Shown piece after piece: positions 26,401 through 43,647 of a stretch of 64,000 nucleotides of DNA. The stretch comes from a candidate division WOR-3 bacterium. Lineage in GTDB: Bacteria > Hydrothermota > 32-111. Under the pieces are notes generated by a model. That model ran no database searches and was not told the DNA's origin. It saw only the letters and a list, made by a program, of their open reading frames with translations. Location of the stretch: the NCBI GenBank assembly GCA_037481815.1, contig JBBFKX010000003.1, positions 32,001 through 96,000 of the forward strand, read 5' to 3'. Position numbers and translations under genes: made by a program. Position 1 is the first letter of the stretch; every line of letters starts with the position of its first letter.

Positions 26401-26837
26401 ATAACCAAGATTATCAAATGTGTTATAAGATTTGCAAAAATACCGGCCATTATATCATCAAGTATTATTCCTGTTGGCCCTTCAATATTTTCAAATTTCT
26501 CAAGGTAGAATATTTTTGCAATATCAAGATACCTGAAGATCAGAATCGAAAAAAACATGATAAAAAAATTTTTAGGCAAAAACATAATAGAAATGATCGC
26601 TCCAAGAAGTTCATCAACAACTATTCTTGTGTCATCTCCAGAAAATTTTTTTGAATTGGATATACTCACATAGGAAACAAAAAGGGTAAACACAAAAAAA
26701 TAGTAGATAATCAAAAAATTAACATTCTGGGAAAAAAACAAAAACAAAAAGAAAAGAAAGGACACAATTGTTCCACCACCTTTGATATAACCAACAAAAC
26801 ATACTGTATTAACAATTGAATAGAAAATCTCTATCAT
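26397..26837 (-). CDS. pgpA: Phosphatidylglycerophosphatase A
   Basis: IVVDELLG, FRYLDIAK, ILDDIMAG; canonical pgpA-cinA-thpR-recA order. Confidence 0.85.
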   Translation of the reverse strand: MIEIFYSIVNTVCFVGYIKGGGTIVSFLFFLFLFFSQNVNFLIIYYFFVFTLFVSYVSISNSKKFSGDDTRIVVDELLGAIISIMFLPKNFFIMFFSILIFRYLDIAKIFYLEKFENIEGPTGIILDDIMAGIFANLITHLIILVI

Positions 26838-27571
26838 CTGTAGATTTCTGGAATCTTTTTGAGTTCTTTTATCTCTTCCTGTGAAAAAAGTGAAAGATAA
26901 TTCAAGATTATTATTATTCTTTTTTCGTTCTTAAAAATTCCAACACCTTCTATGTATTTTAACTTTTCCTCAGGTAAAAAAGGTGGGATTTTTTTTATAT
27001 CCGATTTTTCCATTTTTACTATACCGATGAGTTTATCAACATAAAACCCTATCCTTAGTTCATCGAGTTTCATTATAACTATCGATCCATTTTCACTTCT
27101 CTTATTTATTTTTAAGCCAAATTTCTCTCTGAGATCGAACAGAGGAAGAAAGCCCTCTTTGTCATTTAACACCCCAAAGAAACTTTTACTTTTTATTCCA
27201 AGATCGAGTGGATCTTTGTATTTAATGATCTGTTTTACAAGATCTGAATCTATACCATACTCTTCTTCATTCAATTTAAAAGAAACGTATTCCTTTTCAT
27301 CTTCAAATTCATTCTCTTTTTTTGAAACTTTTTTTTCTACCAGAAAAATTTTTTCTTCATCTTTTTGCTCAACATTTTTTAATTCTTTGATATTTTCATC
27401 TAAAACATTCTCTTTTTCATAACTAAAATTTTCCTCTTTGATCTCTTCTGTCTCTAATCTTTCAGTTTTCAAAGGTTCGATTTCATTTTGTTCCTTGACT
27501 TTCTCCTTTTTATCTTCAGGTTTTTGTCTACCGCTTTTAAAAAGAGAAGAAAGGTCAACTTTCTTTTTCAT
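26834..27571 (-). CDS. cheW: CheW coupling protein with ~90 aa charged N-terminal extension
   Basis: YVSFKLNEEEYGI, FGVLN, LPLFDLREKFGL, GFYVD. Confidence 0.85.
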   Translation of the reverse strand: MKKKVDLSSLFKSGRQKPEDKKEKVKEQNEIEPLKTERLETEEIKEENFSYEKENVLDENIKELKNVEQKDEEKIFLVEKKVSKKENEFEDEKEYVSFKLNEEEYGIDSDLVKQIIKYKDPLDLGIKSKSFFGVLNDKEGFLPLFDLREKFGLKINKRSENGSIVIMKLDELRIGFYVDKLIGIVKMEKSDIKKIPPFLPEEKLKYIEGVGIFKNEKRIIIILNYLSLFSQEEIKELKKIPEIYR

Positions 27572-28400
27572 ATTTTTCCCCCAGAATCTCTTTTAATTTG
27601 ATTTCAGCTTTTTGAGCCCATTTACTGAATCTGTTCTTTTTTATCAGTTCTTTTAAAACTGTAATTCCTTTTTTTTCCATTCCAGCAGAGATATAAACTA
27701 GACCAAGATAATAGTAGGCTTCAAGGTGGTTTGGTCCAAGTTGTATCGTATCTTTGAGAAATTTTATAGAATCATCATACATCTCTCTTTCCATATAGAT
27801 AAGGCCAAGATAAAAATTAGCATACATCAAAGCAACCCTGTCCTTTGAGTTTTTCAGAACATATGTTAAATGTTCTATCGCTTCTCCATATATGCCTTTT
27901 TTGAAACAGACAAAACCAAGATTATTTTTAGCAATAGAGTTTTCAGGGTCTATCTGTAAAACTTTTTGAAAAACTATCATCGCATCATCATATCTCTCTT
28001 TGTTTATATATGCCCATCCTAAAAGATCAAGGGTTTTAACATCTTTCGGAGCAAGAGAACTCGCTTTTTCGAGAACTTCTATTGCATCATCATATTGTTC
28101 TTCAACAAGGAAATTCCATCCTTTGTCTATGTACGTTGATAGATCAACTTTGGATATTCTAATGTTTTGAACAAAATTTTCAAATGTACTTTTATCCATT
28201 TTTTTTGTTTTTAACTTTTTTGCCAGTTCCTTTATTTTTATGTCAGCCTGCACCAGAAAATCGTTGAGTTCCAATATCTCTTTATGAAGATTTATTATTT
28301 GATTTTTAATATTTTTTTCATCATAAGAATTTGCATCGATTTGAGATGATAAAATGTCTATCTCTTTTTCAAGATCTTTTTTAAATTCTTTAAATTTCAT
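27555..28400 (-). CDS. Coiled-coil + TPR protein
   Basis: N-terminal heptads, then TPRs (LLGWAYIN, NNLGFVCFKKG, YYLGLVY). Confidence 0.85.
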   Translation of the reverse strand: MKFKEFKKDLEKEIDILSSQIDANSYDEKNIKNQIINLHKEILELNDFLVQADIKIKELAKKLKTKKMDKSTFENFVQNIRISKVDLSTYIDKGWNFLVEEQYDDAIEVLEKASSLAPKDVKTLDLLGWAYINKERYDDAMIVFQKVLQIDPENSIAKNNLGFVCFKKGIYGEAIEHLTYVLKNSKDRVALMYANFYLGLIYMEREMYDDSIKFLKDTIQLGPNHLEAYYYLGLVYISAGMEKKGITVLKELIKKNRFSKWAQKAEIKLKEILGEKYEKES

Positions 28401-29421
28401 TTAAAAGTTCCTCTATCTTTTTTGCTATATCCTTTCTATCTAAAACAAAATCTACAGCACCTGTTTCCTCAGCAGATTTTGGCATTCCATAGATAAGTGC
28501 ACTCTCTTTTGATTCAACGATATTCTTTCCATTCATTTTTTTTATAATTTTAACACCTTCGCTTCCATCTTTACCCATTCCTGTCAGAACAACTCCAATA
28601 ATTCTGTTTTTAAAATATTTTACTGCTGAGATCATCATTATATCAGCGGATGGACGAACCGAATGGTATGGAGGATCATCCGTATGTATAATGTATCCAT
28701 TTTCATCAAACACCATGTGCTTTCCACCCTGTGCTATAACACAATCACCGTTAAGGAGTTTACAGTTATCGTAAGATTCAAAAACATTCAAATTGGATAT
28801 CGAATCAAGTCGTTCAGCAAAGGACTTTGTAAAACCAGCAGGCATATGTTGAACTATCGCAATCGCTCCATTTATATCACTCTTTATCTTAGGAATTATA
28901 TCCATCAGTGACTTAGGACCTCCTGTTGAAGATGCTATGGCTACAAGTCTTGTGGCTTCAACCCTTTTTTCTTTAAAAACTTTTTCACTTTTTTCAGTTT
29001 CCAAAACCACTTGATTCAAACTCAGAAGATTCGCCTTTAACCCTGTTTTCAATTTTACCAGAATTTCATTCTTCTTATCCTTATAATCTAAAGAGGATGG
29101 TTTCTCAACAACATCAATCGCACCAAGTTCAAGTGCTTTCAACGCTATCTTCGATCCAGTTTTTGTATATGAACTAACTATTAGAACCGGCAAACTTTTT
29201 ATCCTCAGAATATGTTGAAGTGCTATAAGACCGTTCACTTTTGGCATCTCTATATCAAGTGTCACAATATCAGGATCAAGTTCTTTTATTTTATCTATCG
29301 CTTCAAGACCATCACTCGCCTCACCAACCACTTCAAAATCATCATCTGAACTTATTATATCTTTTAAAATTCTTCTGATCAAAGCAGAATCATCAACCAC
29401 AAGGACTTTAAATTTTTTCAA
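28390..29421 (-). CDS. cheB: Chemotaxis methylesterase/glutaminase CheB (REC + catalytic domain)
   Basis: VVDDS, TLDIEMP, SSTGGP, QHMP, LTGMGKDG; catalytic triad intact. Confidence 0.96.
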   Translation of the reverse strand: MKKFKVLVVDDSALIRRILKDIISSDDDFEVVGEASDGLEAIDKIKELDPDIVTLDIEMPKVNGLIALQHILRIKSLPVLIVSSYTKTGSKIALKALELGAIDVVEKPSSLDYKDKKNEILVKLKTGLKANLLSLNQVVLETEKSEKVFKEKRVEATRLVAIASSTGGPKSLMDIIPKIKSDINGAIAIVQHMPAGFTKSFAERLDSISNLNVFESYDNCKLLNGDCVIAQGGKHMVFDENGYIIHTDDPPYHSVRPSADIMMISAVKYFKNRIIGVVLTGMGKDGSEGVKIIKKMNGKNIVESKESALIYGMPKSAEETGAVDFVLDRKDIAKKIEELLNEI

Positions 29422-29897
29422 ATGAAAATCTCCCCATTTTTAAAAGAAATCACTCTTATGATACCATTTTTCACTGTAAATTCAACTGATCTACTATAAT
29501 CGCTTCCTACATCTTCTGCAACGATTGGAATCCTTAATTCTTTTAACATTTTCCTTGCAATTTCAACATTTCTATATCCTATAGAATCTTCAACACTCTT
29601 TATGAAAGTGGAAAACATGTTTGCACCACCAACAATTTTTGATTCCATTCTATACTTTTTTGCACCGAGCTGCTCCATCTCCAAAATAAGGTTTGGAAGT
29701 CCACTATCACAGTATTTATAAGGATTAAAAACAACATTCGAATAGGTTCGTGAAGGTAACATGTAATGGATCATTCCTCCTATTTTTTTTTCTCTATCAA
29801 ATAAAGTTAAAGCAACGCATGACCCAAGACCTATCGTTTTTAAAACATCATCTTCAAAACCTATATTCGCATCAGCTATCTTTATGTTGATTATCAA
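29418..29897 (-). CDS. cheD: Chemoreceptor glutamine deamidase CheD
   Basis: GLGSCV, HYMLP, KIVGGANMF, IGYRN, EDVG. Confidence 0.93.
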   Translation of the reverse strand: MIINIKIADANIGFEDDVLKTIGLGSCVALTLFDREKKIGGMIHYMLPSRTYSNVVFNPYKYCDSGLPNLILEMEQLGAKKYRMESKIVGGANMFSTFIKSVEDSIGYRNVEIARKMLKELRIPIVAEDVGSDYSRSVEFTVKNGIIRVISFKNGEIFI

Positions 29898-30690
29898 TTT
29901 TTTTAAAAACCCTCTCTTTAATGTTTATTGGTTTATAAAGTGCTTTTGTGTTACCTGTTAAAATTTCGACCTTTCCAAGTATAAGATAACCCTCTGGAAA
30001 TAAAAGTTCATAGAACACGTTAAAAATCTTTTCCTGAAACTCCTTTGAAAAATAGATGAGCACATTTCTACATATTATAAAATCAAATTTTCCAAGAGTA
30101 AAGAGTATATTTTCTTCTTTAATATCAACAAGTTTAAAATAAACATTCTCTTTCAACGATTCATCTATGGAATAGTAATCTCCCATCTTTTTAAAATATC
30201 TGTTGATCTCACTTTCGGTTAATTCTATAAGAGAATAATCTTTGTAAAGTCCTATATTAGCTTTTTTTATAGCATCTTCATCAACATCGATCCCAACTAT
30301 CTCATAATTGAATTCATTTTTTATTCTTAACCTTTTCATGATCATATCCAAAGAATAAACCTCCTCCCCAGTAGAACACCCCACACTCAAAATCCTTATC
30401 CTTTTCTTTTTTTTTATGATTTCAGGGAAGATAACCTCTTCAAGATAATCAAAGGTTTCTCTATTTCGAAAAAATCTTGTAACATTGATTGTTAATGTTT
30501 CTTTCAATATGTTTAATTCATCTCTATCACTTTTTAAAAATTGTAAATACTCCATAAAAGTTTTTTTGCCGGTTGCCCTCATTCTGACCATAAGCCTTCT
30601 TTTGAAAGGTCTCTCTTTATAAATATTACCATCGATACCAATTTTTTGGCTTATGTAGTCAACAAGAATTTTATAATCTATTTCATCCAT
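29872..30690 (-). CDS. cheR: Chemotaxis methyltransferase CheR
   Basis: TINVTRFFRN, GCSTGEEVYS, FDFIICRNVLIYF. Confidence 0.95.
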   Translation of the reverse strand: MDEIDYKILVDYISQKIGIDGNIYKERPFKRRLMVRMRATGKKTFMEYLQFLKSDRDELNILKETLTINVTRFFRNRETFDYLEEVIFPEIIKKKKRIRILSVGCSTGEEVYSLDMIMKRLRIKNEFNYEIVGIDVDEDAIKKANIGLYKDYSLIELTESEINRYFKKMGDYYSIDESLKENVYFKLVDIKEENILFTLGKFDFIICRNVLIYFSKEFQEKIFNVFYELLFPEGYLILGKVEILTGNTKALYKPINIKERVFKKIDNQHKDS

Positions 30691-32281
30691 TTCTTACAGT
30701 GTTTATAGTTTTTTTGAGTATCTCGTTGCCGGGTTGTAGTTTTAAAGCTTCCTCCCAAAATTTTAGTGCCTCATCCTTTTTTCCTTTTCTATATTTGATA
30801 TTTCCCAGCTTATAAAAGACATCAAAATCTCCTTTGTTCATATTGACTAGTTGCTCAAGAACTATTTCTGCAGCCTCAAAATTTTTTTCAAGGAAATAGA
30901 AATCGATCAACGATTTGTACGGTAAAACCTCATCTCCGCATACCTCTACACTCTTTTTTAGAAAATTTCCAGCACTCTCATATTTCCCAACAGCAAGATA
31001 CATTTGCCCGAGATTGTAATGGTACTGCCAGACGGAAGGGTCATTTTTGGAAAGTTCAAAGAATATTTCTGTCGATTCGTTTACCATTCCATATTCAAAA
31101 TATATTAATCCCAAAAAATATCTGGCATACTTTAAATTTTTATCAATGTTTAAAGCCATTTTCAACTTTTCTTCAGCATCCGAAAAAAGGTTTTCCTTGA
31201 AAAGGAGTATTCCATAGTTGGCAAGAATTTTGGGATTCTCGGGTTCCATTTTTACTGCTCTTTCATAAAATTCTTCAGCTCTTTCAAAAATTCCAAGACG
31301 TTCATAGGTAAGAGCTATATTGTTAAAGAGCTGAACATTCACAACACCCAATTTTAAAAGTTCCTCAAAAAATTTTAAAGATTCATTGTAATCCCCCATC
31401 CTGAAATATATGAGTCCAAGATAAAAATATGCTTTTACATCACTTCGATCAAGTTGTATTATATGTTTGAATTCCCTAATAGCTTCTTCATGCATTTCAG
31501 TTAAAAGAAAAGCGATGCCAAGATTATAATGTTCCATTATCTTATTCTGTGAATCAACGATCACCTCTGCACTCTTTTCCTCCCCTGCATAAATATATCC
31601 AAGTTTCAGTAATGTATAAAGTTCCTTTCCGGTTTCATATTTTCCAACAGTTGAAATCTCAAATATTTCTTTTAAAGTTCTAAATCCATCAACAAGAGAG
31701 AATATATACCTTGTGATTTCGTTTTCTATATCCTCTTCTTTCTTTATACCCGTTTTAACAAGCACTGTTTTTTCCGAAGGTAACTCTTTTTCGATTATCG
31801 ACCATTCATCGATTTTTCTTGCTTCTTCAAGTAAAACATCATCGGCCTCTATCTCAACCGTAATCGTTTCTGTAACCGGTTCGATATTTGGCTCAAAGTT
31901 AAAAAATCCTGTTTTCCAGGTTAAAAGAGTAAAAATACTATCGGTGATCTGTTGTTTTATCCTCTTTTCAAGCACCTCTTTCGAAACAAAATTCATTTCA
32001 ACGAGTATATCGCCGAGTCTTTTTTTCGATTTTATTTCTTCCTGATATTCGAGAGCTTTTTCCAACTGTTCTTTTGTGATGTCGTTTGATTTTAACAGAA
32101 GATTCCCGATCCTTTCCTCTCTGTTGACTATAGAACAATAAATTATTTTTCCATCCTTGAAAAATATATCACCAAAATTTTTCTTATCCGAAACACTCAA
32201 AACTCCAGTTTTTCTTCCAAGAGAAAGTAACTGGATTATATCCGGCAAAGATGCTTCCTGTAAATTTCCCCTTATGGCCAT
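30683..32281 (-). CDS. DUF4388 (PATAN-like) + MshEN-like + TPR protein
   Basis: MAIRGNLQEASLPDIIQLL...KTGVL and W-x-x-G-x-F-x-F (DUF4388); two R(I/L)GxxL...Q repeats; C-terminal TPR array. GAGGT RBS favours ATG 32281. Confidence 0.82.
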   Translation of the reverse strand: MAIRGNLQEASLPDIIQLLSLGRKTGVLSVSDKKNFGDIFFKDGKIIYCSIVNREERIGNLLLKSNDITKEQLEKALEYQEEIKSKKRLGDILVEMNFVSKEVLEKRIKQQITDSIFTLLTWKTGFFNFEPNIEPVTETITVEIEADDVLLEEARKIDEWSIIEKELPSEKTVLVKTGIKKEEDIENEITRYIFSLVDGFRTLKEIFEISTVGKYETGKELYTLLKLGYIYAGEEKSAEVIVDSQNKIMEHYNLGIAFLLTEMHEEAIREFKHIIQLDRSDVKAYFYLGLIYFRMGDYNESLKFFEELLKLGVVNVQLFNNIALTYERLGIFERAEEFYERAVKMEPENPKILANYGILLFKENLFSDAEEKLKMALNIDKNLKYARYFLGLIYFEYGMVNESTEIFFELSKNDPSVWQYHYNLGQMYLAVGKYESAGNFLKKSVEVCGDEVLPYKSLIDFYFLEKNFEAAEIVLEQLVNMNKGDFDVFYKLGNIKYRKGKKDEALKFWEEALKLQPGNEILKKTINTVRNG

Positions 32282-32283
32282 TT

Positions 32284-33942
32284 TCAAACCTCAAACTCTA
32301 CATACAACCTATCGGTATCATTTATCCACTCTTTAATCAATTTTGAAGAATCGAATCCACCTTTTTTAACAAACTCTCTCTTTTTGATCGTTCCAGATGG
32401 GAAAATTTTCTTTATCAGTTCTTCGGTTATATTCGTTTCATATTTTTTCAATTCAAGAAAATATCTTTCTATCTCTGACAGCGGAGTAGTAACATAATCA
32501 AGAAGGAAATTGAAAAGAAAATCGTTTATCTTGATTCCATATTTTAAAAGTAAATTTTTATACACATTCTTTTTTATAAAAAGTGATGTTGGCTGAATAT
32601 TGTAAGAGGTGTATTTGTTGAACATATCGAGGATCTCTCTATCATCGATACTGAATTTTCTTTGTAGAGTTATTACTTTCACAACATTGTTTGATAAAAT
32701 ATTCTTTATCACTGGAACGTTTTCTCTTTTTTCGTAGATCTTATCCAGATCATCGATCAAAACAAGATCCACCTCGTTTATAAATTTCATAACATAAAAA
32801 TTGTTTGCAGCCTGCTGTATATTATTTCTGTTTATGAAGATAACCCTTTTATCAACCAAACTGTTAAAGAGTCCATTCAGAATATGCGTTTTTCCTGTTC
32901 CAGGACTACCGGTTATCAAAACTATTTTATCAGTATTAACTCCATTGATTATTTCACCGATCTTATTTATAACCGATCTGTTAGAAGAATCTATAACAAA
33001 ATTGTTCAAATTCATCAGAATACTTGTTTCCTTTTCAAAAAAAGTAAAATAGTTTATTTTTTCTTTTAAAAGATCAATTTTTTCTTTCAAGATCTCGACA
33101 CGATCTGGATCAAAAAGCATCGATTCAATCTCTTGTGCTTCAGTTTTAAACTTTTTCACATTAAGAAGTCCAAACTCCTTATGTAATTCCATAAGTTTTT
33201 TTACATTCTCGGTAAACTTCTCAAACTCTTTTCTGATATAGCCGGTATCTTTTGAATTAATAACATTTTTAAGATGTTCAACGTTGAAGCCTTTCATCTC
33301 CCAGACATAAAGTTTTTCTATAAATTCCTCTTTACTTTCCTGCTCATCGAGTTTTTCTTCTACTCCTGCCTCCTGTTTTACCTGGGTTATGAAATCAACA
33401 AAGTTTATAAAATTGTTATTGATTTTCTTTTCCTTTATAAGGTTATATATTTTAAACTGTAATAAAAACTCCCTTATCCTCTCAATATTTTTTATTTCTT
33501 CAACTTTTTTTGATGATGTAATCAAAAGAAAAGTGTTCGACTTTAAACCCAAAAAAAGTTCCTCAACAAATTTTGAAAGTTCAGGATGTTTTTCTATATG
33601 ATCAAAATTTTTTACAAGGAGAATGTTTGCATAGGGAAAAATGTTTTTGTATTTGAGAAGGGTATCAGTTTTTTTTAGTTCAAAAATTTCTTTAAAATCA
33701 AGAACAAAAAGATAAAGTTCCCGAAACTTTCTTGAAAGATCAAAAAAAAGTTTATCAACAAATTCGTTTCCCGTTCCATCGTTAGAGTAAACTATTTCAA
33801 ATCTGCTTGTAAGATACCCAGTTGATAATGAATAGGAATACTCAGATTTTAAAAATGGATCTTCAGGTAAATTTTCTTTTACCGACTTGATACTAAAAAC
33901 TGTAAAATTTTCTTGAAATTCCTTTATATCATTTTGGTTCAT
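32284..33942 (-). CDS. Tandem DnaA/Hda-like AAA+ protein lacking DnaA domain IV
   Basis: C-half has NNFVIDSSNR, GSPGTGKTH, VLIDD; N-half is a degenerate copy; central coiled coil. Confidence 0.7.
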   Translation of the reverse strand: MNQNDIKEFQENFTVFSIKSVKENLPEDPFLKSEYSYSLSTGYLTSRFEIVYSNDGTGNEFVDKLFFDLSRKFRELYLFVLDFKEIFELKKTDTLLKYKNIFPYANILLVKNFDHIEKHPELSKFVEELFLGLKSNTFLLITSSKKVEEIKNIERIREFLLQFKIYNLIKEKKINNNFINFVDFITQVKQEAGVEEKLDEQESKEEFIEKLYVWEMKGFNVEHLKNVINSKDTGYIRKEFEKFTENVKKLMELHKEFGLLNVKKFKTEAQEIESMLFDPDRVEILKEKIDLLKEKINYFTFFEKETSILMNLNNFVIDSSNRSVINKIGEIINGVNTDKIVLITGSPGTGKTHILNGLFNSLVDKRVIFINRNNIQQAANNFYVMKFINEVDLVLIDDLDKIYEKRENVPVIKNILSNNVVKVITLQRKFSIDDREILDMFNKYTSYNIQPTSLFIKKNVYKNLLLKYGIKINDFLFNFLLDYVTTPLSEIERYFLELKKYETNITEELIKKIFPSGTIKKREFVKKGGFDSSKLIKEWINDTDRLYVEFEV

Positions 33943-34544
33943 CTTTTATTTTTTTCAAATCTAGTTGTAAGATTCTTTATAACAGAAAACATCGACTCTT
34001 TGAGTGTTTCTAAAACACCTACTCCCTTCGTTGCAACCGACTCAAAACTCTTCCATTCGTTTTTAAGTTGAAGAGTCGTTTTTATGGTTTCAATATCAAG
34101 AGCTGTTGGAAGATCCCTTTTATTGTACTGAATAATGAGAGGAATATTTTCTATCGATAGATTGTTTTCCTTTAGGTTTATTACAAGATTTTCAAAAGAT
34201 TCTATATTATCTTCCATCCTATCAGCCTGTGAATCGATAACAAAGACAACTCCATCGGCACCCTGTAAAACGAGTTTTCTCGTTGAATCGTAATAAACCT
34301 GACCGGGAACAGTATAGAGCTGGAATTTTGCATTGAAGTTACCAATTTTGCCAACATCAAAAGGTAGAAAATCGAAAAATAAAGTTCTATCCATTTCGGT
34401 TGCAAGTGATGTCATCTCTCCCCTTTTGTCAGGTGGAATTTTACTGAATATGTATTGAAGGTTTGTTGTCTTCCCTGACCTTCCAGGACCATAATAAACT
34501 ATCTTACAGATTATCTCTTTTTTTGCATAATTTACAAGTGACAT
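33939..34544 (-). CDS. mglA: MglA-family small Ras-like GTPase
   Basis: KIVYYGPGRSGKTTNL, TEMDRTLFFDF, LYTVPGQVYY, QYNKRD; GAGGT RBS favours MSLVNY start. Confidence 0.93.
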   Translation of the reverse strand: MSLVNYAKKEIICKIVYYGPGRSGKTTNLQYIFSKIPPDKRGEMTSLATEMDRTLFFDFLPFDVGKIGNFNAKFQLYTVPGQVYYDSTRKLVLQGADGVVFVIDSQADRMEDNIESFENLVINLKENNLSIENIPLIIQYNKRDLPTALDIETIKTTLQLKNEWKSFESVATKGVGVLETLKESMFSVIKNLTTRFEKNKR

Positions 34545-34551
34545 AATTACC

Positions 34552-35655
34552 TCAATCACCTTTTATCGTGTTGAAAACATCCGCATCGGTTGATTCTATT
34601 CCCCTTAACTTTAATTTGAACTCATCAACATTTGTAACCGATTGTATAGCGTCTTCATACGAAATGATTCCACTTTTGTACAATCTCATGATCGACTGAT
34701 CGAATGTATGCATCTGATACATCGAACCTTCTTCTATAGCTGTTGGGATAAGAAGTGTTTTTATCGGATCAAGGAGGTATTCTTTTATCGTTGGTGTATT
34801 TATCATAACTTCCGTTGCAGGAACTCTTCCCTTTCCATCGATTCTTGGAAGTAATCTTAAAGAGATAACCCCAACAAGTGTTGTTGCAAGTAGAACCCTT
34901 ATGTGTTGCTGCTGGTGTGGTGGATAGAATGATAAGATTCTGTTTATAGTTTCTGAAGCGTTCAGAGTATGCAGGGTTGAAAGAACAAGATGTCCAGTAT
35001 CTGCTGCTTTGATAGCGACATCCATAGTATCAACATCTCTTATCTCTCCCATAAGTATTATATCTGGATCCTGTCTTAGAACATGTTTCAAAGCACTCTC
35101 GTAAGAGTTCGTATCGTTACCAACTTCTCTTTGAGAGATAACGGACTTTTTATCTCTGAAAAGATACTCTATGGGATCCTCTATTGTGATGATATTTTTT
35201 GAATGGTTCTCATTTATGTATTCTATCATCGCAGCGAGTGTTGTCGATTTTCCTGAACCTGTCGTTCCAGTTGTAAGAATGAGCCCCCTCGGCTTTTCTG
35301 CCATCTCTTTTAAAACAGGTGGAAGGTTCAGTTCATCTATAGATTTTGCAGATATCGGTATCGTTCTCATCGCTATAGCAACACTTCCCCTCTGAAGGTA
35401 AACGTTTACCCTGAATCTTGATAAGCCAGCAACTCCTATCGCAAAATCGATCTCTTTTTTTGTTGCGAATTCTTCCTGTTGAGATTTTGTCATTATTTTT
35501 AAGGCAATATTTCTCAACTCATCCGGGCTCATCGGTTCTTCTTTTAAAATTTGCAATTTTCCATCTATCCTTAAAATCGGTGGAGTTCCCGCCTTCAGAT
35601 GAAGGTCTGATGCTCCGTCCTTTACCATTTTTTCAAGTAAAGCTTTCAATTCCAT
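34552..35655 (-). CDS. pilT: Type IV pilus retraction ATPase, PilT/PilU family
   Basis: SDLHL, GTTGSGKSTT, TIEDPIE, LRQDPD, GEIRD, TGHLVLSTLHT; AIRNLIRE motif replaced by TIKEYLLD. Confidence 0.88.
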   Translation of the reverse strand: MELKALLEKMVKDGASDLHLKAGTPPILRIDGKLQILKEEPMSPDELRNIALKIMTKSQQEEFATKKEIDFAIGVAGLSRFRVNVYLQRGSVAIAMRTIPISAKSIDELNLPPVLKEMAEKPRGLILTTGTTGSGKSTTLAAMIEYINENHSKNIITIEDPIEYLFRDKKSVISQREVGNDTNSYESALKHVLRQDPDIILMGEIRDVDTMDVAIKAADTGHLVLSTLHTLNASETINRILSFYPPHQQQHIRVLLATTLVGVISLRLLPRIDGKGRVPATEVMINTPTIKEYLLDPIKTLLIPTAIEEGSMYQMHTFDQSIMRLYKSGIISYEDAIQSVTNVDEFKLKLRGIESTDADVFNTIKGD

Positions 35656-35667
35656 ATTCTCTCCTTA

Positions 35668-36225
35668 TTATACTCTTTCAACATACTCGCCGGTTCTTGT
35701 ATCTATTTTTATTTTATCTCCAACATTCAAAAAAAGTGGAACTGTAACTCTAAGCCCTGTATCACAAACAGCAGGTTTACTACCACCAGATACAGTGTTC
35801 CCCCTAACTCCTGGCTCAGTTTCCACTATCTCAAGTTCAACAAAGATTGGTACTTCAATATCAATAACTCTATCACCAACAGAGAGTAAAGTAACATCCA
35901 TATTTTCTTTTAAATAGAATCTTTTTTCCTGCAATATATCTTCTGTCAAACTTATCTGCTCATATGTCTCATTGTTCATAAAAATATATTCTCCTCCATC
36001 TCTGTATAAAAATTGAAACGGATTCCTTTCAAGTTTTATCTCGTTCAAACTTTTTCCGGAATCAAAGGTCATATCGATGATATTACCATTTTCAAGATTC
36101 CGCAACTTCGTTCTCACGAATGCACCACCTTTACCCGGTTTAACATGCTGGAAATCGACAACGAGATAAATTTTACCTTCATATTCAAAAGCAAAACCTT
36201 TTCTAATATCAGCTGTTGTAGCCAT
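35668..36225 (-). CDS. efp: Elongation factor P
   Basis: HVKPGKGGAFVR, PGVRGNT, DTRTGEY. Confidence 0.98.
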   Translation of the reverse strand: MATTADIRKGFAFEYEGKIYLVVDFQHVKPGKGGAFVRTKLRNLENGNIIDMTFDSGKSLNEIKLERNPFQFLYRDGGEYIFMNNETYEQISLTEDILQEKRFYLKENMDVTLLSVGDRVIDIEVPIFVELEIVETEPGVRGNTVSGGSKPAVCDTGLRVTVPLFLNVGDKIKIDTRTGEYVERV

Positions 36226-36235
36226 TAAACCTCCA

Positions 36236-37648
36236 TCATTTTTTCTTTTGGTTTATAAATTTTATCCATTCTTGAAAATTCCCATCAAAAGAAGATTTTT
36301 CCTGTTTTTTTTCTTCAGTTTTGTTTTCATCATCCTGTTTCTTGATCTCGTAATCAACTTCTTTTTTTTCTTCTATTTTTTCTTCAGATTCCTTTTTCTC
36401 TGTTTCTTCTACAACGGTTTTATTTCCCATCTGTTCAACATTTTTTGTTTCAAATGCGACATTCTCTTCAAGGTTACCAAATTTTTTTTCGAAATCAACT
36501 TTTTCCTCTTCAGAAACATTTTCGAAAGATAAAGATCTGTTCAATTTTTCAATAAACTCGGCTCTATTTTCTTTTTTCTCACCCTCATCACTTTTGAACA
36601 TTTCTTCGTCAACTTCCTCTTTTATCATGAGTTCTCTAAGGGTTCTTATCTTTTCTGCATATCTTTCCTCATCGGGATTCTGACGAAGAAGAGTTTGGTA
36701 AATATCTATCGCTTTTTCATACTTTTTCTGTTCAACATATATGTTGGCCATCTCTTCTGAAAAGTACAGAAACCTTTTTGTTCCACTCAACTCATAAGGA
36801 ATAATCTTTTCCTCTTTCTTATCTTCCTTTTTTATGAACGGATCAACATCCTTTTTAATGAATTTTTCTTCATCGATTATTCCAACACCTTTTTTTTCTG
36901 TGGTTTCATCTTTCTCTGTATTATCAGTGTTAATTTTTTCCTCTTTTGTAAAAGTGAAAGAAGTTTTTGAATGTTCTAAAACCATTTCCTTGTCTTCTTT
37001 TGTTTCAACCTTTTTCTCTTTTTCCACTTGTTTTTCATTTTTAGTTTGTTCTTTTTTCTCTTCCTTTTTTTCTTCCTCGTCAAAACTTATCACATTTGAG
37101 GAATGCTGGATGATAAAGTCATCAACTATTTTTTTCTCTTCGAAAGCATCTTTTTGAACAACTTCTTTCTTTTCTTCCTCTTTTTTCTTTAAAAGTTTTT
37201 CTTTTTCTTCTTTTATACGATTTTCCTCCTCAATTTTTCCTCTGATTATCTTCAACTCCCTTTTCGCATCTTCGTTAAGAGGATCAAGGAAAAGAATCGT
37301 ATCGTAAAGTTTTAAGGCCTCCTGTAAGTTACCTTCCCTTTTTTTTATTTCAGCGAGTTCAGAAAAAGCAACTATGTTCTGAGGATCAAGTTTGATAACC
37401 TTTTCAAAATTTTTTGAAGCGTTAACAAAATCTTTTTTTTCTTTCAGAGCTTTTCCATAAAGAATAAGTGCTGAAACATTGTCAACATTGTATCTCAGCC
37501 CCTCTTTTAAAACGGCAAGAGATTCATCAACCATATTTACTTTTAAATAAATGTTTGCAAGTTTAATAAAAGATTTAGATTTAGGATTCCTGGAAATATC
37601 TTCAAGTAATTCTTTTATCTCTTTTTCATACATACTGTAAGAGTTCAA
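36236..37648 (-). CDS. TPR protein with long E/K-rich low-complexity linker
   Basis: N-terminal TPRs (SFIKLANIY...), acidic linker, internal EEMANIYVEQ-x-x-YEKAIDIY TPR, C-terminal FQEWI. Start is TTG 37648 (GGAGG) or ATG 37633, because the promoter lies inside the track ORF's 5' end. Confidence 0.8.
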   Translation of the reverse strand: MNSYSMYEKEIKELLEDISRNPKSKSFIKLANIYLKVNMVDESLAVLKEGLRYNVDNVSALILYGKALKEKKDFVNASKNFEKVIKLDPQNIVAFSELAEIKKREGNLQEALKLYDTILFLDPLNEDAKRELKIIRGKIEEENRIKEEKEKLLKKKEEEKKEVVQKDAFEEKKIVDDFIIQHSSNVISFDEEEKKEEKKEQTKNEKQVEKEKKVETKEDKEMVLEHSKTSFTFTKEEKINTDNTEKDETTEKKGVGIIDEEKFIKKDVDPFIKKEDKKEEKIIPYELSGTKRFLYFSEEMANIYVEQKKYEKAIDIYQTLLRQNPDEERYAEKIRTLRELMIKEEVDEEMFKSDEGEKKENRAEFIEKLNRSLSFENVSEEEKVDFEKKFGNLEENVAFETKNVEQMGNKTVVEETEKKESEEKIEEKKEVDYEIKKQDDENKTEEKKQEKSSFDGNFQEWIKFINQKKK

Positions 37649-37679
37649 AGTTCCTCCGTTGAGATTCTTTAAAATAAAA

Positions 37680-37708
37680 ATTATAATTAAAATATATAAA
37701 AGTGTCAA
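37680..37708 (-). promoter_or_regulatory. Consensus sigma70 promoter TTGACA-17-TATAAT for the TPR-efp-pilT-mglA-che-recA operon
   Basis: Plus strand tgtcaa 37703-37708 and attata 37680-37685. Confidence 0.8.
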
Positions 37709-37721
37709 CAACTCTTTTTCA

Positions 37722-38783: not shown

Positions 38784-40385
38784 TTATTTTATATCCCTTA
38801 TTATGTGTGGAGTGATGAAGATCAAAACTTCTTTGTTATTTTTTGTAGATATATCCCTTTTGAAAAGATTACCCAAAATCGGTATAGCCCTTAAAATTGG
38901 TATTCCACTTTCAGATCTCTGATCCTCTGTAAGGATGAAACCACCCATCACAACAGTTTCACCATCTGAAACCATCTGAACAGTTTTTGCCTGTGTCTTA
39001 TTTATTATTGGCTGTCCACCAGCATCAGCGGTAACAGTCGAAAGTTCCGCTTCTATTTCAAGAGTTATATCCTCTGCTGAGTTTACATGTGGTATCACAT
39101 TCAAAATTGTTCCCACTGTATATTTTGTATAATTAACTGTTCCATCAGTGTTTATAGTCGTTAGGAAAAATTCCTTTCCACCAAGAATATTCGCCTGTGT
39201 ATTGTTGGTTGTGGTTATCCTTGGATTTGAAACAGTTTTTGATTTTCCAACGACCTCAAGTGCATCGAGACGTGCGCTCAACTGTCCAAAATCTCTTGTT
39301 GTTCCTATTGTCACGGTTCCGGCTGTCATACTTGAAGGATCAACCCCTGGAATTCCTCCACCTATCGTCACCTGATTTATTCCCACATTGTTCAATGTCC
39401 ATGATATTCCAAGTTCTTTTGAATCGTTCAACTGGATCTCAACAACTTTTACAACGATTTCTACCTGGAGGTTTTTCTTATCCAGATCCTCTATAATACC
39501 CTGTATTCTGTTCTGAACATCCTGAATATCTTTCACGATTATCGAGTTTGTTCTTTCATCTATCGTTATGATACCTCTTTTCGATAGAACAGGTCTTAAA
39601 GAATTCTGTAAAATTTTTGGATTCGCAAATTCAAGTTTATATACCGTTGTTATCAAAGGTAACGCATCCTGCATCGCTGTTTGTTCGGATGAGAACTCTT
39701 TGTATGTTCCCACCCTTATCATATTTGGATACTCCTGATAGGTTAGTCCTGCTAACCTTGTTACCATATCAAAAATGTCTTTCCATGGAACATCTTTTAC
39801 ATGGATCGTGACTCTTCCGGTCACAGAACTTGATATTACAAGGTTTACTCCAACATAATCAGCGATTCCTCTTAACAGCGTCACAACATCAGCGTTTTCA
39901 ACATCGAGTGAGATCAAGAAATCTGAATTCTTTGATGTTACACCACCAGATTGTTCTTTGGATGTTGGTTTAGCGTTTGACGCTTTCCATACAGGGATAT
40001 CAGTGTTTACATTTTTATTCAGTTGAATAACGATATCGTTACCTTTATACTCCTTTGAATAAGCATACTTATCATCAGTTTCAATCATAACCCTTAAAAA
40101 GTTGGTCTCATAGTCCTTTATGATCTCAAACGAAATAATCCCTGAACCGTTGTTAACCTTATAGTATCCTCCATTTAATCCATTGTCTATACCTATAAGA
40201 TCGATAACGATCATGTTTGGTGAAGTTATCGAAAAATCTGTAAAATTGGCAACTTTATCAAGTGAAAATCTTATCTCCGTTTTTCCATTTTCAGTGTTAA
40301 CCGTTATATCGTTGAGAAGCCCAAGGGAAAAAGCTGAGATGGAGAGAAGAAAGACAAAGGACAAAATAAAAATTCTCTTAACCAT
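38784..40385 (-). CDS. pilQ: Type IV pilus secretin PilQ
   Basis: Signal peptide, AMIN-like N-domain, DERTNSIIV, GETVVMGG, SGIPILRAIPILGNLF, LIFITPHI. Confidence 0.92.
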   Translation of the reverse strand: MVKRIFILSFVFLLSISAFSLGLLNDITVNTENGKTEIRFSLDKVANFTDFSITSPNMIVIDLIGIDNGLNGGYYKVNNGSGIISFEIIKDYETNFLRVMIETDDKYAYSKEYKGNDIVIQLNKNVNTDIPVWKASNAKPTSKEQSGGVTSKNSDFLISLDVENADVVTLLRGIADYVGVNLVISSSVTGRVTIHVKDVPWKDIFDMVTRLAGLTYQEYPNMIRVGTYKEFSSEQTAMQDALPLITTVYKLEFANPKILQNSLRPVLSKRGIITIDERTNSIIVKDIQDVQNRIQGIIEDLDKKNLQVEIVVKVVEIQLNDSKELGISWTLNNVGINQVTIGGGIPGVDPSSMTAGTVTIGTTRDFGQLSARLDALEVVGKSKTVSNPRITTTNNTQANILGGKEFFLTTINTDGTVNYTKYTVGTILNVIPHVNSAEDITLEIEAELSTVTADAGGQPIINKTQAKTVQMVSDGETVVMGGFILTEDQRSESGIPILRAIPILGNLFKRDISTKNNKEVLIFITPHIIRDIK

Positions 40386-40393
40386 TTATTACC

Positions 40394-40972
40394 TCACTTT
40401 TTTTTCTTTGTATCAACAGTTTTAACCAATTTGATCACTTTATTTCTGACGACTCCATATTCATCCAACTTAAAGATCACAGAGTCCTGTTCTATTTTTA
40501 AAAGAATACCATTTTTTATCTTCTGTCCCTCATAAAATATGAACCCAAGCCCAGAAGCATCTTTCAACAAAGCAAGTTTTCCGTTTTTTCCTTTGATCAT
40601 TCCATAATACATTGCACTTTCAATATCGATCTGTACTTTTCCATCCCTCTGCTGTTCAAGTATTGAGACGAAAGGATCATTCTTTGTCTTTGTTTTGAAT
40701 GTGTATGTTTCAATAGTAAAAGGAAGTGCTGAGGTAGTATCGTATGGTAAAGAATCAATAACTTGCTCTTCTATATCAGTTTTTACAACATTCGTGTCAG
40801 TTGTTGAAACGATATTCTCTGTTGCTTTCACATCCTTTTTAGAGGTCAGGGCATTCGATGATTTTTCAATCGCTGAATTCACAGGATTGCCTCTTGAACA
40901 GGAGATCAAGAAAAATAGAACGATCATAATTGAAAAAAGAAGGGTTGATTTACTATTTTTTCTTTTTAACAT
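40394..40972 (-). CDS. pilP: PilP-like lipoprotein
   Basis: Lipobox LISC, NDPF motif, position between pilO and pilQ. Confidence 0.7.
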   Translation of the reverse strand: MLKRKNSKSTLLFSIMIVLFFLISCSRGNPVNSAIEKSSNALTSKKDVKATENIVSTTDTNVVKTDIEEQVIDSLPYDTTSALPFTIETYTFKTKTKNDPFVSILEQQRDGKVQIDIESAMYYGMIKGKNGKLALLKDASGLGFIFYEGQKIKNGILLKIEQDSVIFKLDEYGVVRNKVIKLVKTVDTKKKK

Positions 40973-41546
40973 TTTTACCTTCCTCTGTTTTTGTTTGGGC
41001 TCCTGGACCTTTATAGTAAGTTGACAAAGTTAGCACAGTTTGAATCGTACTGAGATTTTCATCAGGATTTTTTAAAGGTTTAATCGAAATACTGTTAACC
41101 TTCGTTATCCTTTTCTGGTTTCCCATATCCGTTAAAAACAATCCAAGAGAAGAAAAATTTGAGTTGAGTGTTATTTCATGGTTGATACTTGCATACTCGT
41201 TTGTCACTGATACATTCAAAGGTTTTATGTTCATTATTTTTACATTATTTTTGTTGGCATAAACGGTTAAACTGTCAAGAGCATCTTCAAGTAGTTGTGA
41301 ATCTGGAAGCATTTTGTTTGCGATTTTCAACTGATTTTCAAGTACCTTTAACCTTTTCGTGTACTCAACCAAACTTGCTGCAACCTTTCTTGCTTCATTA
41401 ACCTGAGTGTTCAGTTTATCGTTTTCAGCTTTAAGTTGAGAAATGGTTTTTGAATTTTTTGAATAATCAAATTTCCAGTATAGAAAGAGGATCGCTATCA
41501 GAACAACGACGGTTATTATAGTTTTTATTAAATTATTTTTTTCCAT
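40953..41546 (-). CDS. pilO: Type IV pilus assembly protein PilO
   Basis: N-terminal TM, coiled coil, MLPD, FSSLGLFL; operon position. Confidence 0.85.
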   Translation of the reverse strand: MEKNNLIKTIITVVVLIAILFLYWKFDYSKNSKTISQLKAENDKLNTQVNEARKVAASLVEYTKRLKVLENQLKIANKMLPDSQLLEDALDSLTVYANKNNVKIMNIKPLNVSVTNEYASINHEITLNSNFSSLGLFLTDMGNQKRITKVNSISIKPLKNPDENLSTIQTVLTLSTYYKGPGAQTKTEEGKNVKKKK

Positions 41547-41555
41547 CTGCCACCC

Positions 41556-42134
41556 CTATTTTTTGTAGGTACAATTTATTTCAAAAGAGATTATATCGTA
41601 GCCACCCTCTGGTTTGTTAACAATATCCTTTAAAGTGAAGTTATCAAAATATTCTGTTTCTTTTTTCAGATTTGTTAAAAGATCGGTTATCATAAGGTTT
41701 GAAAAAGTTTTTCCTTTCAAAATTAACCTTTTATCTTTTACGGTCAATTCTTCGAGCCAGACATATTCAGGTAAAAGTTGGTTTATTTTATCAAGAAGTT
41801 GAGCATAAGCAAATTTTCCAGATATAAGATTTTTTATTGTTTCCATTTTGGCATTTATTTCACTCTCTTTCTGTTTCATCTTTTCAACCTTCGCAACCTC
41901 TTCCTGTAATTTTTTAAGTTCATTCTGTTTTTCAGTTATTTTCTTCTTTAACTGGTTTATCTGCCCAACCTGAGAGAAATGTATTATAAAAATAATGATG
42001 AAGAGGAGAACCGCAACACCAATTGAAACAAAAAATCCGAGATTAGTCGGGATCTTGATACCGATTTTTGGTATTCCACCCTCACTCTTCTTTCGCTTTC
42101 TTTCCTCTTCTGGTAGTAAATTTATCTCTATCAT
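41556..42134 (-). CDS. pilN: Type IV pilus assembly protein PilN
   Basis: IEINLLP motif, TM, coiled coil, LPEYVWL. Confidence 0.9.
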   Translation of the reverse strand: MIEINLLPEEERKRKKSEGGIPKIGIKIPTNLGFFVSIGVAVLLFIIIFIIHFSQVGQINQLKKKITEKQNELKKLQEEVAKVEKMKQKESEINAKMETIKNLISGKFAYAQLLDKINQLLPEYVWLEELTVKDKRLILKGKTFSNLMITDLLTNLKKETEYFDNFTLKDIVNKPEGGYDIISFEINCTYKK

Positions 42135-42147
42135 CTTTACCTCTCTT

Positions 42148-43451: not shown

Positions 43452-43611
43452 TAGGTTAAAACCATTTTTAAGATTTTTTTGTAAGTGTCAATTTGTTTAT
43501 AATTTTAACAAATAACTTTTATTCGAAAACACTTTTCAATAAAAGACCCTAAAAGATTATAAAAATTTTTATAAAGATCTAAAAAATTTGTTTCTGCTAA
43601 AATGTGGATAA
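43425..43611. promoter_or_regulatory. Cluster of DnaA-box consensus sites
   Basis: TTATACACA 43425-43433, TTATCCACA 43436-43444, TGTGGATAA 43603-43611; near match TTATACATA 43405-43413. Confidence 0.6.
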
Positions 43612-43619
43612 CTTTTTTC

Positions 43620-43647
43620 TTGATATTTTTTCAATTTTTTCTAAAAT
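43620..43647 (+). promoter_or_regulatory. Putative promoter of the GAF gene (TTGATA-16-TAAAAT)
   Basis: Upstream of the AAGGGG RBS and ATG 43667. Confidence 0.5.

Follow-up and report, generated by a model that had tools for sequence, protein, structure and literature searches.

Why should an ATPase of the DnaA type be encoded among genes for cell polarity, pilus retraction and chemosensory adaptation? The question is raised by a 64,000-nucleotide stretch of DNA (hereafter the window) from a candidate division WOR-3 bacterium (contig JBBFKX010000003.1 of assembly GCA_037481815.1). Eleven minus-strand open reading frames (ORFs) in the ORF list of the window, at 26834-37711, code in the order of transcription for a tetratricopeptide repeat (TPR) protein, Efp, PilT, MglA, a 552-amino acid (aa) ATPase, a protein that combines a PATAN domain, an MshEN-like insertion and TPRs, CheR, CheD, CheB, a further TPR protein and CheW. 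Gene identities were obtained from family scans (Pfam, NCBIfam) and from a sequence search of the PDB. They bear out the composition and the order given in a preliminary description of the window, which was made from the sequence alone and proposed that these genes form an undescribed pilus polarity and chemosensory system.

The core of this cluster that is conserved among genomes is a pair of genes, encoding a double DnaA-type AAA+ protein and then the PATAN/MshEN-like/TPR protein (PATAN/TPR protein below), preceded by a gene for MglA, an MglB-like gene or both. We infer that the pair has a role in polarity. Our preferred reading, to which we give a probability of about 55%, is that the window contains one half of a single chemosensory-polarity system, most likely one that directs the motility conferred by type IV pili in a WOR-3 bacterium without flagella. 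This figure applies to the system as a whole, and each step of the mechanism proposed below is less certain.

Conservation of the ATPase–PATAN/TPR gene pair

Two sets of loci were compared, in which the ORFs carry labels from their best BLASTP hits to proteins of the window's own genome and not from independent family assignments. In the first set, 17 loci from species genomes, the ATPase gene was followed by the PATAN/TPR gene in 13 cases; the exceptions were a contig that ends inside the gene (L025), a locus from Gemmatimonadota (L028) and two fusions to LptB (L032, L033). The second set was taken from about one genome per family across the phylum and comprised 18 loci, three of them on the same contigs as in the first set. 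The PATAN/TPR gene directly followed the ATPase gene in 17 of these 18 loci, the exception being an LptB fusion. Among the 17, cheR came next in 15 and the order cheR-cheD-cheB was found in 13; an orthologue of the 281-aa TPR protein was encoded after cheB in 10, and directly after the PATAN/TPR gene in a locus devoid of che genes (L053). On the upstream side, mglA was present at a distance of at most two genes in 8/17 loci and an MglB-like Roadblock gene was directly adjacent in 8/17, one or the other being found in 14/17. The ATPase–PATAN/TPR–cheR core stays while its flanks vary, across families in which the ATPase is only 27-40% identical. The preliminary description had proposed a search of gene neighbourhoods in other genomes; the order is kept far beyond close relatives, and the names attached to the homologues (candidate division WOR-3, TA06, Stahlbacteria) agree with its statement that the lineage is not myxobacterial. 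Three loci that are nearly collinear with the window's module (L018, L022 and L027) are labelled Acetofilamentum sp., uncultured Bacteroidales and Proteobacteria bacterium; these look like mislabels, as gene content and identity place the loci with the WOR-3/TA06 group.

A scan of the phylum at E ≤1e-10 matched the ATPase in 115/272 genomes. The full-length 552-aa form was found only in the window's family (13/13 genomes), and the proteins of other families measured 580-720 aa or about 395 aa. Matches in family f17 resemble DnaA itself, and this family was set aside from the counts. A tree of the MglA copies, midpoint-rooted for drawing only, consists of two clades with support 100/99. The genes of clade 1 (17 rows, including the window's copy) directly abut the ATPase gene; those of clade 2 form pairs with mglB, and in family f27 the ATPase gene is itself preceded by such a pair.

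The distribution of the pair was compared with that of CheA over the 30 families that appear in both scans. CheA is missing from each of the 18 families in which the ATPase family is missing. The ATPase is present in 11 families (f17 aside), nine of which have CheA, and a tenth, f22, has cheA by BLAST in locus L058. CheA is almost never found without the ATPase–PATAN/TPR pair. The pair itself is found without the Che pathway: genome G019 (L053), which lacks CheA, has the order ATPase–PATAN/TPR–281-aa TPR without che genes in the neighbourhood, and genus g61 of family f27 (L062), likewise lacking CheA, has Roadblock–ATPase–PATAN/TPR without a neighbouring cheR. MglA was kept in 5/5 Che-less genomes tested that carry the pair. 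Since the pair outlives the Che pathway and does so together with MglA, it appears to belong with the MglA/MglB module, the Che pathway being an added input.

A second Che locus in the same genome

The host genome (1.58 Mb, 95% complete, 20 contigs) encodes one CheA, three CheW domains, four methyl-accepting chemotaxis proteins (MCPs), five GGDEF proteins and five PATAN proteins, together with four PilB/GspE-type and two PilT-type ATPases. Neither FlhA nor flagellin was found in this 95%-complete genome. The cheA gene lies on another contig, in a second minus-strand cluster with the order MCP–cheW–cheY–cheA–cheC–TPR–PATAN–three Roadblock/MglB-like genes–TPR. The products following CheC are a 902-aa TPR protein, a 371-aa PATAN protein, a TPR-Roadblock protein, two more Roadblock proteins and a further TPR protein. 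CheA (626 aa) has Hpt, P2, dimerisation, HATPase and CheW domains and no receiver, CheY being a separate protein. An unusual MCP of 1112 aa is encoded beside cheA (L015:14707-18045); two MCPsignal stretches lie near its N-terminus, and residues 664-1029 form a family-5 solute-binding domain (SBP_bac_5, E 5.3e-81).

Components of a complete chemotaxis-type pathway (MCP, CheA, CheW, CheY, CheR and CheB) are thus distributed over the two loci, with CheC and CheD besides. The Che genes of the window make up the adaptation half of the genome's only Che pathway, and the bacterium is piliated and non-flagellated as far as the assembly shows. The genome also provides the Roadblock GTPase-activating protein expected of an MglA/MglB pair: it has five Roadblock matches, four of them above cut-off, none of which adjoins the mglA gene of the window. 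Two match MglB of the PDB, with E 3.2e-13 for the last Roadblock protein of the second locus and E 1.1e-32 for a protein encoded at a third locus, where mglB lies beside a second MglA-like GTPase gene and an MCP gene.

In two other families (L054 and L058), cheA-cheC-TPR902-PATAN-Roadblock run straight into ATPase-PATAN/TPR-cheR-cheD-cheB. Because the two loci are contiguous there, the locus of the window and the second locus are taken to be one system. The preliminary description saw only half of this system; the second locus adds an MCP, CheA, CheC and CheY as well as three Roadblock/MglB-like proteins and another PATAN protein.

The ATPase is derived from DnaA

A search of solved structures with the sequence of the 552-aa protein (P0001) returned nothing (best E 0.086). 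An alignment was made with 19 full-length relatives (mean column identity 63%), which share the Walker A (G345..GK351T) and Walker B (D397, D400) residues of the C-terminal half, a very strongly conserved centre and a near-invariant C-terminal end. The AlphaFold2 model has a predicted local distance difference test (pLDDT) score of 79. In it, residues 1-170 form an alpha/beta domain, 201-303 a helical module and 320-513 an AAA+ module with its lid, and the tail is disordered. When the whole model was submitted to Foldseek, the tandem AAA+ proteins p97 and NSF were aligned over 540-600 columns with E about 1e-10 and a TM-score of about 0.2, the low TM-score being expected from the differing orientations of the domains.

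The C-terminal module matches TIGR03420 (E 1.9e-12, residues 311-407) and PF00308 (25.2 bits, cut-off 23). Its P-loop is intact in 8/8 members of the window's family, and other families often keep the N-terminal P-loop or both. The N-terminal domain is modelled as a degenerate AAA+ module without Walker A, its AAA+-like character resting on its fold and on divergent homologues. The motif GxxGxGK[ST] is absent from it in 8/8 members of the window's family, and BLASTP of the N-terminal 176 residues against the whole protein detected no similarity to the C-terminal half (best non-self E 0.83). In L024 (E 1.3e-38) and L028 (408.5 bits) the corresponding domain is a genuine PF00308 domain, and both homologues contain two PF00308 stretches. 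The presence of two true PF00308 domains in divergent homologues makes the earlier term 'tandem DnaA-like' right as a statement of origin and agrees with a DnaA-derived ATPase; in the protein of the window only the C-terminal half is detectable as such by sequence.

The ATPase is not a member of the Hda family, as it scores 47.2 bits against the TIGR03420 equivalog cut-off of 194.8 and the match covers only residues 311-407. Nor does it carry DnaA domain IV (PF08299), for which there was no match anywhere in the assembly. The 552-aa protein is the only PF00308 match above cut-off in this assembly, in which no canonical dnaA was detectable. Canonical DnaA domain IV is found in 13/13 genomes of the same family, 5/5 of the same genus and 244/272 of the phylum; its presence in all the family genomes indicates that the lack of dnaA here is probably an assembly gap. 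A function of the 552-aa protein as the replication initiator was considered and rejected, since relatives carry canonical DnaA and the protein has no DNA-binding domain. The ATPase is a DnaA-derived double AAA+ protein that is neither DnaA nor Hda. Its conserved N-terminus (F9, Q10, F13) showed no clear match to the clamp-binding motif. It was also observed that none of the 12 genomes of family f14 (G061-G072, completeness 57-95%) matches PF08299, compared with 244/272 phylum-wide; either DnaA is very divergent there or this lineage lacks it.

The PATAN/TPR protein and its predicted contact with the ATPase

The 534-aa product of the second gene of the pair (P0003) contains a PATAN domain (PF14332, residues 6-163, 128 bits against a cut-off of 25), into which an MshEN-like segment is inserted, and a TPR region. 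The published MshEN motif, RLGxx(L/V/I)(L/V/I)xxG(L/V/I)(L/V/I)xxxxLxxxLxxQ, is described in the accessible portion of PMC5013675 as tandem 24-residue units with a 5-residue spacer. The core R-h-G...L...L..Q occurs twice in P0003, at residues 59-82 and 90-113. Among the orthologues this core occurs twice in some and once in others, and it is absent from several. As to the suggestion that the TPR scaffold could bind cyclic di-GMP (c-di-GMP), the segment passes the model NF053729 (49 bits, cut-off 38) and fails the published strict and relaxed patterns, which leaves c-di-GMP binding as a possible property of the insertion.

Nearly all the ATPase homologues that are linked to this gene context end, after a charged linker, in a similar motif (...RLYVEFEV, ...FRLIKEY, ...ERLINDY, ...ELIEENY). 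Ends of the type ...R[LI]xx[DE][YF] are present in divergent homologues and absent from the LptB fusions. This shared motif suggested a docking peptide for the TPR groove, a proposal made ahead of complex modelling. The complex of ATPase residues 180-552 with the whole PATAN/TPR protein was then predicted from alignments of our own, with three controls. The interface score ipSAE was 0.73, 0.72 and 0.73, and 0.00 for the best of the three controls; the mark applied to this score is reached by 116/157 solved complexes and by 2/215 mismatched pairs, counts that hold only roughly here since our own alignments were used. At least 58% of the contacts agree between runs, and the partner has a pLDDT of at least 74. 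The whole confident interface consists of the ATPase tail (residues 528-551) against TPR residues 284-459. The groove contacts N323, which is invariant, and N357 and N425, which are at least 90% conserved, form a row of Asn residues in the P0003 alignment. The tail of the ATPase is therefore predicted to dock in the TPR groove of the neighbouring gene's product. Of the physical links between components imagined in the preliminary description, this is the one contact that modelling supplies.

A proposed mechanism and its alternatives

In the mechanism that we propose, the PATAN/TPR protein would provide a scaffold at the base of the pilus; its TPR groove would tether the ATPase, and c-di-GMP may be sensed by its MshEN-like insertion. 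As other AAA+ proteins of the initiator clade do, the ATPase would function as a switch or assembly factor that depends on ATP, and not as an unfoldase; it might set or time the polarity state of MglA/MglB. The Che pathway, adapted by CheR, CheD and CheB, would feed environmental signals to this switch and so cause reversals, as Frz does in Myxococcus. A more specific and more tentative idea, which we hold to be possible and well short of probable, is that an initiator-clade AAA+ protein has been recruited from replication as a third nucleotide switch in cell polarity, coupling the MglA/MglB cycle to the pilus motor and to chemoreceptor adaptation. If this were true, the system would contain an ATP-driven timer or assembly step that has no counterpart in the Myxococcus, Pseudomonas or cyanobacterial models, and the switch would be a duplicated ATPase with a new helical module, tethered by a peptide to a PATAN-TPR receptor that may read c-di-GMP.

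Several observations weigh against a dedicated chemosensory-polarity system. The genes efp, pgpA, cinA, ligT, recA and recX belong to the same overlapping string, and pgpA-cinA-ligT-recA are also found downstream in distant relatives (for example L029 and L030); in a compact genome neither co-transcription nor synteny alone proves common function. The gene pilT, present in the window as described earlier, is in the neighbourhood in only 7/17 sampled loci, and elsewhere accC, with or without thiE, usually parts it from mglA or the ATPase gene, so that the link to PilT does not hold throughout. Distant homologues of the ATPase occur in contexts unrelated to mglA, che or pil genes, an outcome that the preliminary description had named as contrary to its proposal; this is the case in part, for the LptB fusions (L032, L033) and the Gemmatimonadota locus (L028). 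P0003 departs from both MshEN patterns: at the turn of each unit Asn replaces Gly/Ala/Ser, and the spacer has 7 residues. TPR-peptide complexes are common among solved structures, so the ipSAE pass may partly reflect a generic likeness; the controls did not include the other TPR proteins of the cluster, and the calibration is approximate. Finally, related genomes are not independent, and the counts given above overstate support; they describe a pattern and were not submitted to a statistical test.

Some of these points would be accommodated by a Che-like pathway with another output, such as formation of biofilm or aggregates, c-di-GMP turnover, a developmental switch or pilus-mediated DNA uptake, which the pair would serve in place of motility polarity. 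The genes cinA and recA follow in the string with conserved synteny, the linkage to pilT is restricted as stated, the genome has five GGDEF proteins and the MshEN-like insertion, and some genomes keep the pair without CheA. We nevertheless consider this unlikely. MglA and MglB are known regulators of motility polarity, and a gene for MglA or an MglB-like protein precedes the pair in 14/17 loci; pilMNOPQ and pilT adjoin the cluster in the window; cinA-recA is a common housekeeping pair; and a PATAN domain has been documented to act on a pilus motor, as reported in the consulted part of a preprint (10.1101/2021.06.11.447907). Slightly less likely again is that the ATPase assembles or positions the chemoreceptor array, a job done elsewhere by the ParA-like proteins ParC or PpfA, being tethered through the TPR scaffold and having no direct role in the MglA cycle. 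This would suit the position of cheR directly after the pair in 15/17 loci and the family-by-family co-occurrence of the ATPase with CheA. The receptor C-terminal pentapeptide tethers CheR and CheB, and the flexible linker of the ATPase with its short aromatic and acidic C-terminal peptide recalls it. Against such a role, the pair persists without CheA and cheR (G019/L053 and g61/L062), the Che-less carriers keep MglA (5/5), and the gene directly upstream of the pair is that of MglA or an MglB-like protein and not a che gene.

It could also be argued that there is no module, and that an accidental co-transcribed string in a streamlined genome happens to include an Hda-like replication regulator. 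Housekeeping genes are indeed interleaved and syntenic, NCBI and JGI name the homologues 'DnaA/Hda family protein' or 'chromosomal replication initiation ATPase DnaA', and this assembly has no canonical dnaA. This explanation is already disfavoured and very improbable: the flanks vary while the ATPase–PATAN/TPR–cheR core stays at 27-40% ATPase identity, the two loci are fused in two families, an interface between tail and TPRs is predicted, the absence of dnaA is accounted for as an assembly gap by domain IV in 13/13 genomes of the family, and the 552-aa protein has no domain IV and 47 bits against the Hda cut-off of 194.8. A chemosensory-polarity system acting on type IV pili thus remains the reading that we prefer.

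Comparison with known systems

In the few models for which the control of type IV pilus polarity is understood, the adaptor that joins the chemosensory pathway to the motor differs from one model to the next. One of the closest likenesses is to MglA/MglB, Frz and SgmX of Myxococcus, with which the present system shares a group-1-like MglA, MglB homologues, cytoplasmic TPR proteins, adaptation of a Che pathway by CheR and CheB, type IVa pilus machinery that includes PilT and the absence of flagella. In the Frz pathway, FrzE is a CheA-CheY fusion, FrzZ is a dual receiver and FrzCD is a cytoplasmic receptor. Here, in contrast, a plain CheA without receiver and a separate CheY are found, no dual-receiver protein was seen at either locus, and CheD and CheC are present. 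Orthologues of RomR, RomX, FrzS and SgmX were not seen, although no search was aimed at them. The conserved core consists of the double DnaA-type ATPase and the PATAN/TPR protein, and mglA abuts the ATPase gene instead of mglB. The system may work like Frz but is not a member of the Frz class.

The cyanobacterial Tax and Pix systems, with PATAN-receiver proteins of the PatA type, similarly encode PATAN together with a chemosensory system that controls type IV pili. According to the part of a preprint that was available, the Synechocystis PATAN domain binds PilC and the N-terminal region of PilB1, and it determines the direction in which the pili are active (10.1101/2021.06.11.447907). The present system differs in that PATAN is fused to TPRs and not to a receiver, has an MshEN-like insertion, and is accompanied by MglA/MglB and the ATPase. 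The insertion resembles the MshEN domain of Vibrio cholerae MshE, as excerpted from PMC5013675, in its two tandem 24-residue half-motifs with the R-h-G...L...L..Q core and in passing NF053729; it differs in being placed within PATAN and not at the N-terminus of a secretion ATPase, in the change of the turn Gly to Asn in both units and in a spacer of 7 residues instead of 5.

The relationship of the ATPase to DnaA and Hda is visible in the TIGR03420 and PF00308 matches of its C-terminal module and in the intact Walker A and B motifs. Unlike DnaA and Hda, it lacks domain IV, is duplicated, has a new central module and a docking tail, coexists with canonical DnaA in relatives and is never encoded in the context of replication genes. 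TPR clamps are known to bind the EEVD C-termini of Hsp70 and Hsp90 in TPR co-chaperones. The predicted contact is similar to these in that a disordered linker with an acidic and hydrophobic C-terminal peptide (…YVEFEV) would lie in an Asn-lined TPR groove; the proteins and the process are unrelated, and the contact is predicted to involve about 24 residues and not 4-5.

The proximity of mglA and mglB to PATAN genes is already in print (PMC4316618, as far as the available text shows), and the extract of an M. xanthus study of pilus regulators (PMC11580455) names PATAN proteins among the candidates considered. A literature search, which partly covered titles and abstracts, found no description of a DnaA-type ATPase in an MglA or chemosensory context, nor of a system of this composition, in keeping with the initial statement that no characterised one was known; table S2 of PMC4316618, on MglA neighbourhoods, may list related contexts. 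MglA/MglB and a Che pathway acting on pili are of a known kind, and we regard the ATPase–PATAN/TPR core, the central module of the ATPase and the predicted tail contact as new. Many families of this large uncultured phylum have kept the module, and its conserved core is made of the DnaA-derived double ATPase and the putative PATAN/TPR scaffold and not of the Che enzymes. It offers a testable contact (a tail of about 25 residues in a TPR groove), a candidate function for PATAN-TPR proteins outside cyanobacteria, an example of a replication-initiator ATPase fold reused in signalling, and a new helical module of about 100 residues, of which giant proteins contain many copies and which is joined to LptB in other proteins. 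All of this can be tested with recombinant proteins, and the organism need not be cultured.

Organisation of the cluster and of the flanking genes

The coordinates of the genes and features are given in Table 1. The genes of the cluster abut or overlap, as had been noted, with intergenic distances of -26 to +12 nucleotides (nt); the ATPase gene overlaps mglA at its start and the PATAN/TPR gene at its stop by 4 nt each. The tight co-directional string is, however, longer than first described, as it runs unbroken into pgpA-cinA-ligT-recA-recX, and almost the whole window between about 6 kb and 63 kb is coding on the minus strand. Since abutting genes are usual in this 1.58-Mb genome, abutment alone does not delimit a module. 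No convincing minus-strand terminator was found inside the cluster (7 sites in the region, compared with 5.7 +/- 2.6 in shuffled sequences).

Table 1. Position of the cluster genes, protein segments and neighbouring elements in the window.
Feature	Position	Strand	Evidence or remark
pilM-pilN-pilO-(pilP position)-pilQ	38784..43176	-	about 1 kb upstream of the cluster; PilQ secretin, PilO and PilN matches; PilM_2 E 4.4e-47
Sigma-70 consensus promoter, TTGACA–17 nt–TATAAT	37680..37708	-	12/12 consensus matches; GGAGG downstream at 37657-37653
Cytoplasmic TPR protein, longest ORF 491 aa	36236..37711	-	TPR family matches
efp (elongation factor P)	35668..36225	-	TIGR00038, 244.6 bits (cut-off 185.8)
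pilT, type IVa pilus retraction ATPase	34552..35655	-	TIGR01420, 462.4 bits (cut-off 319.1); PF00437 E 1.8e-50
mglA, Ras-like polarity GTPase	33939..34559	-	PDB MglA E 1.7e-67, residues 6-192; start probably ATG 34544
552-aa double DnaA-type AAA+ protein (P0001)	32284..33942	-	C-terminal TIGR03420 and PF00308 matches; model; homologues
P0001 N-terminal alpha/beta domain, residues 1-170	33433..33942	-	AlphaFold2 pLDDT 79-94; five parallel strands
P0001 central helical module, residues 196-312	33007..33357	-	...KLYVWEMKGFN...LHKEYGLLN...IE..LFDPD; most conserved part of the family
P0001 DnaA/Hda-like AAA+ module and lid, residues 320-513	32404..32985	-	Walker A GSPGTGKT at 345; Walker B LVLIDD at 393
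P0001 C-terminal tail, residues 528-552	32287..32361	-	...LIKEWIN.HDRLYVEFEV; nearly invariant though disordered in the monomer model
534-aa PATAN (DUF4388)/MshEN-like insertion/TPR protein (P0003)	30683..32287	-	PF14332, 128 bits; NF053729; TPR families
P0003 two MshEN-like 24-residue half-motifs within PATAN, residues 59-113	31949..32113	-	NF053729, 49 bits (cut-off 38)
P0003 TPR concave groove, residues 284-459	30911..31438	-	predicted to hold the ATPase tail
cheR, methyltransferase	29872..30690	-	PF01739 E 1.9e-49; CheR_N
cheD, deamidase	29418..29897	-	PF03975 E 1e-29; CheD NCBIfam models E 1e-40, below equivalog cut-offs
cheB, REC and methylesterase	28390..29421	-	NF001965, 357.5 bits (cut-off 293)
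281-aa TPR protein	27555..28400	-	TPR family matches; conserved with the module
cheW, 245 aa	26834..27571	-	PF01584 E 9.7e-22, residues 94-232

The single consensus promoter noted earlier is present upstream of the cluster. Promoter-like sites number 77 in the region, compared with 62.4 +/- 7.9 in shuffled sequences, so only the 12/12 site stands out. A correction is required as to its position, which falls within the longest ORF of the first TPR gene; the real start is therefore further downstream, probably at TTG 37648 or ATG 37633. The hydrophobic 'N-terminus' of this ORF is translated promoter DNA. For this reason the possibility that the first TPR protein is an exported pilotin of the PilW/Tgl type, which had been considered on the basis of weak NCBIfam matches and of the hydrophobic N-terminus, was rejected. 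Orthologues of this gene occupy the same position in L017-L021, with 41-62% identity in L017-L020 and a shorter ORF of 196 aa in L021.

The efp gene may be a housekeeping passenger or an aid to the translation of polyproline proteins. The PDB match of MglA in Table 1 is to the M. xanthus protein, and Thermus MglA is matched with E 2.3e-66. The alignment retains GPG..GKTT, ...DRTLFFDFLP... and ...TVPGQV..., the last two of which we take to hold the Arg finger and the catalytic Gln. This assignment is backed by the accessible part of PMC4316618. CheW has a charged N-terminal extension of about 90 residues.

The position of pilMNOPQ was as first reported; pilM, pilN, pilO and pilQ were matched, and the 192-aa ORF in the pilP position had no match in the family scans. 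This block is separated from the cluster by plsY and by a small divergent receiver-like ORF. The latter (114 aa, 37757-38101, plus strand) is divergent to the promoter of the cluster, and its coding region overlaps plsY at the end of that gene; its score of 26.9 bits is below the Pfam cut-off of 30.2, and it is conserved at the same position in L017 (70% identity) and L018 (55%). Just upstream of pilM lies a gene for a stand-alone GAF-domain protein (43604-44119, plus strand), beyond which the minus strand (44116-46591) carries two ORFs without family match and a gene for a DUF6938 protein.

In related loci, metabolic genes are interleaved in the conserved string: accC and thiE lie between pilT and mglA in L026 (6847-8788), with equivalents in L029, L031, L063 and L067, and only an accC-sized ORF is found there in L030, L065 and L055. 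A P-loop protein of about 270 aa of the AAA_22 type (PF13401 E 3.8e-22) is encoded between the 281-aa TPR gene and cheW, with an MCP gene and a second cheW after them, at L026:15857-16669 in another family. Equivalents of this ORF are present in L063, L064, L065, L067 and L068 and absent from the locus of the window.

The central helical module

In an alignment of 26 homologues, the central module of the ATPase has invariant W, K, L, E and P residues, and it is predicted to fold as a helical bundle (AlphaFold2 pLDDT 91.5). It corresponds to no Pfam family. Searches with its fold gave a best E of 2.1 in the PDB (Foldseek) and no usable match in the ESM Atlas; with VIA-align the best Z was 7.3 (root-mean-square deviation 3.0 over 113 residues, an EbhA helical repeat), which is below the noise level of this tool for helical bundles. 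A profile search of 1.84 billion representatives recovered 698 proteins at E ≤0.001, 95 at ≤1e-10 and 30 at ≤1e-30. This segment of about 100 residues represents an unnamed helical repeat family.

Many of the proteins recovered are giant ones (among them P0035, 1281 aa; P0037; P0040; P0082, 3090 aa) that contain the module in 5-14 stretches, and some of these have an N-terminal DUF835, a DnaA-type ATPase domain or zinc ribbons. The LptB fusions are proteins of 607-609 aa (L032:1948-3771; L033:9329-11158, on the same contig as L066:9348-11177), in which a DnaA-like N-terminal domain and the central module are joined to an ABC ATPase (PF00005 E 1.6e-39). The fusion gene sits between lptC/lptA-like genes and rpoN, which is the position of lptB; the central module is thus attached to an ATPase of lipopolysaccharide transport in some genomes of the phylum.

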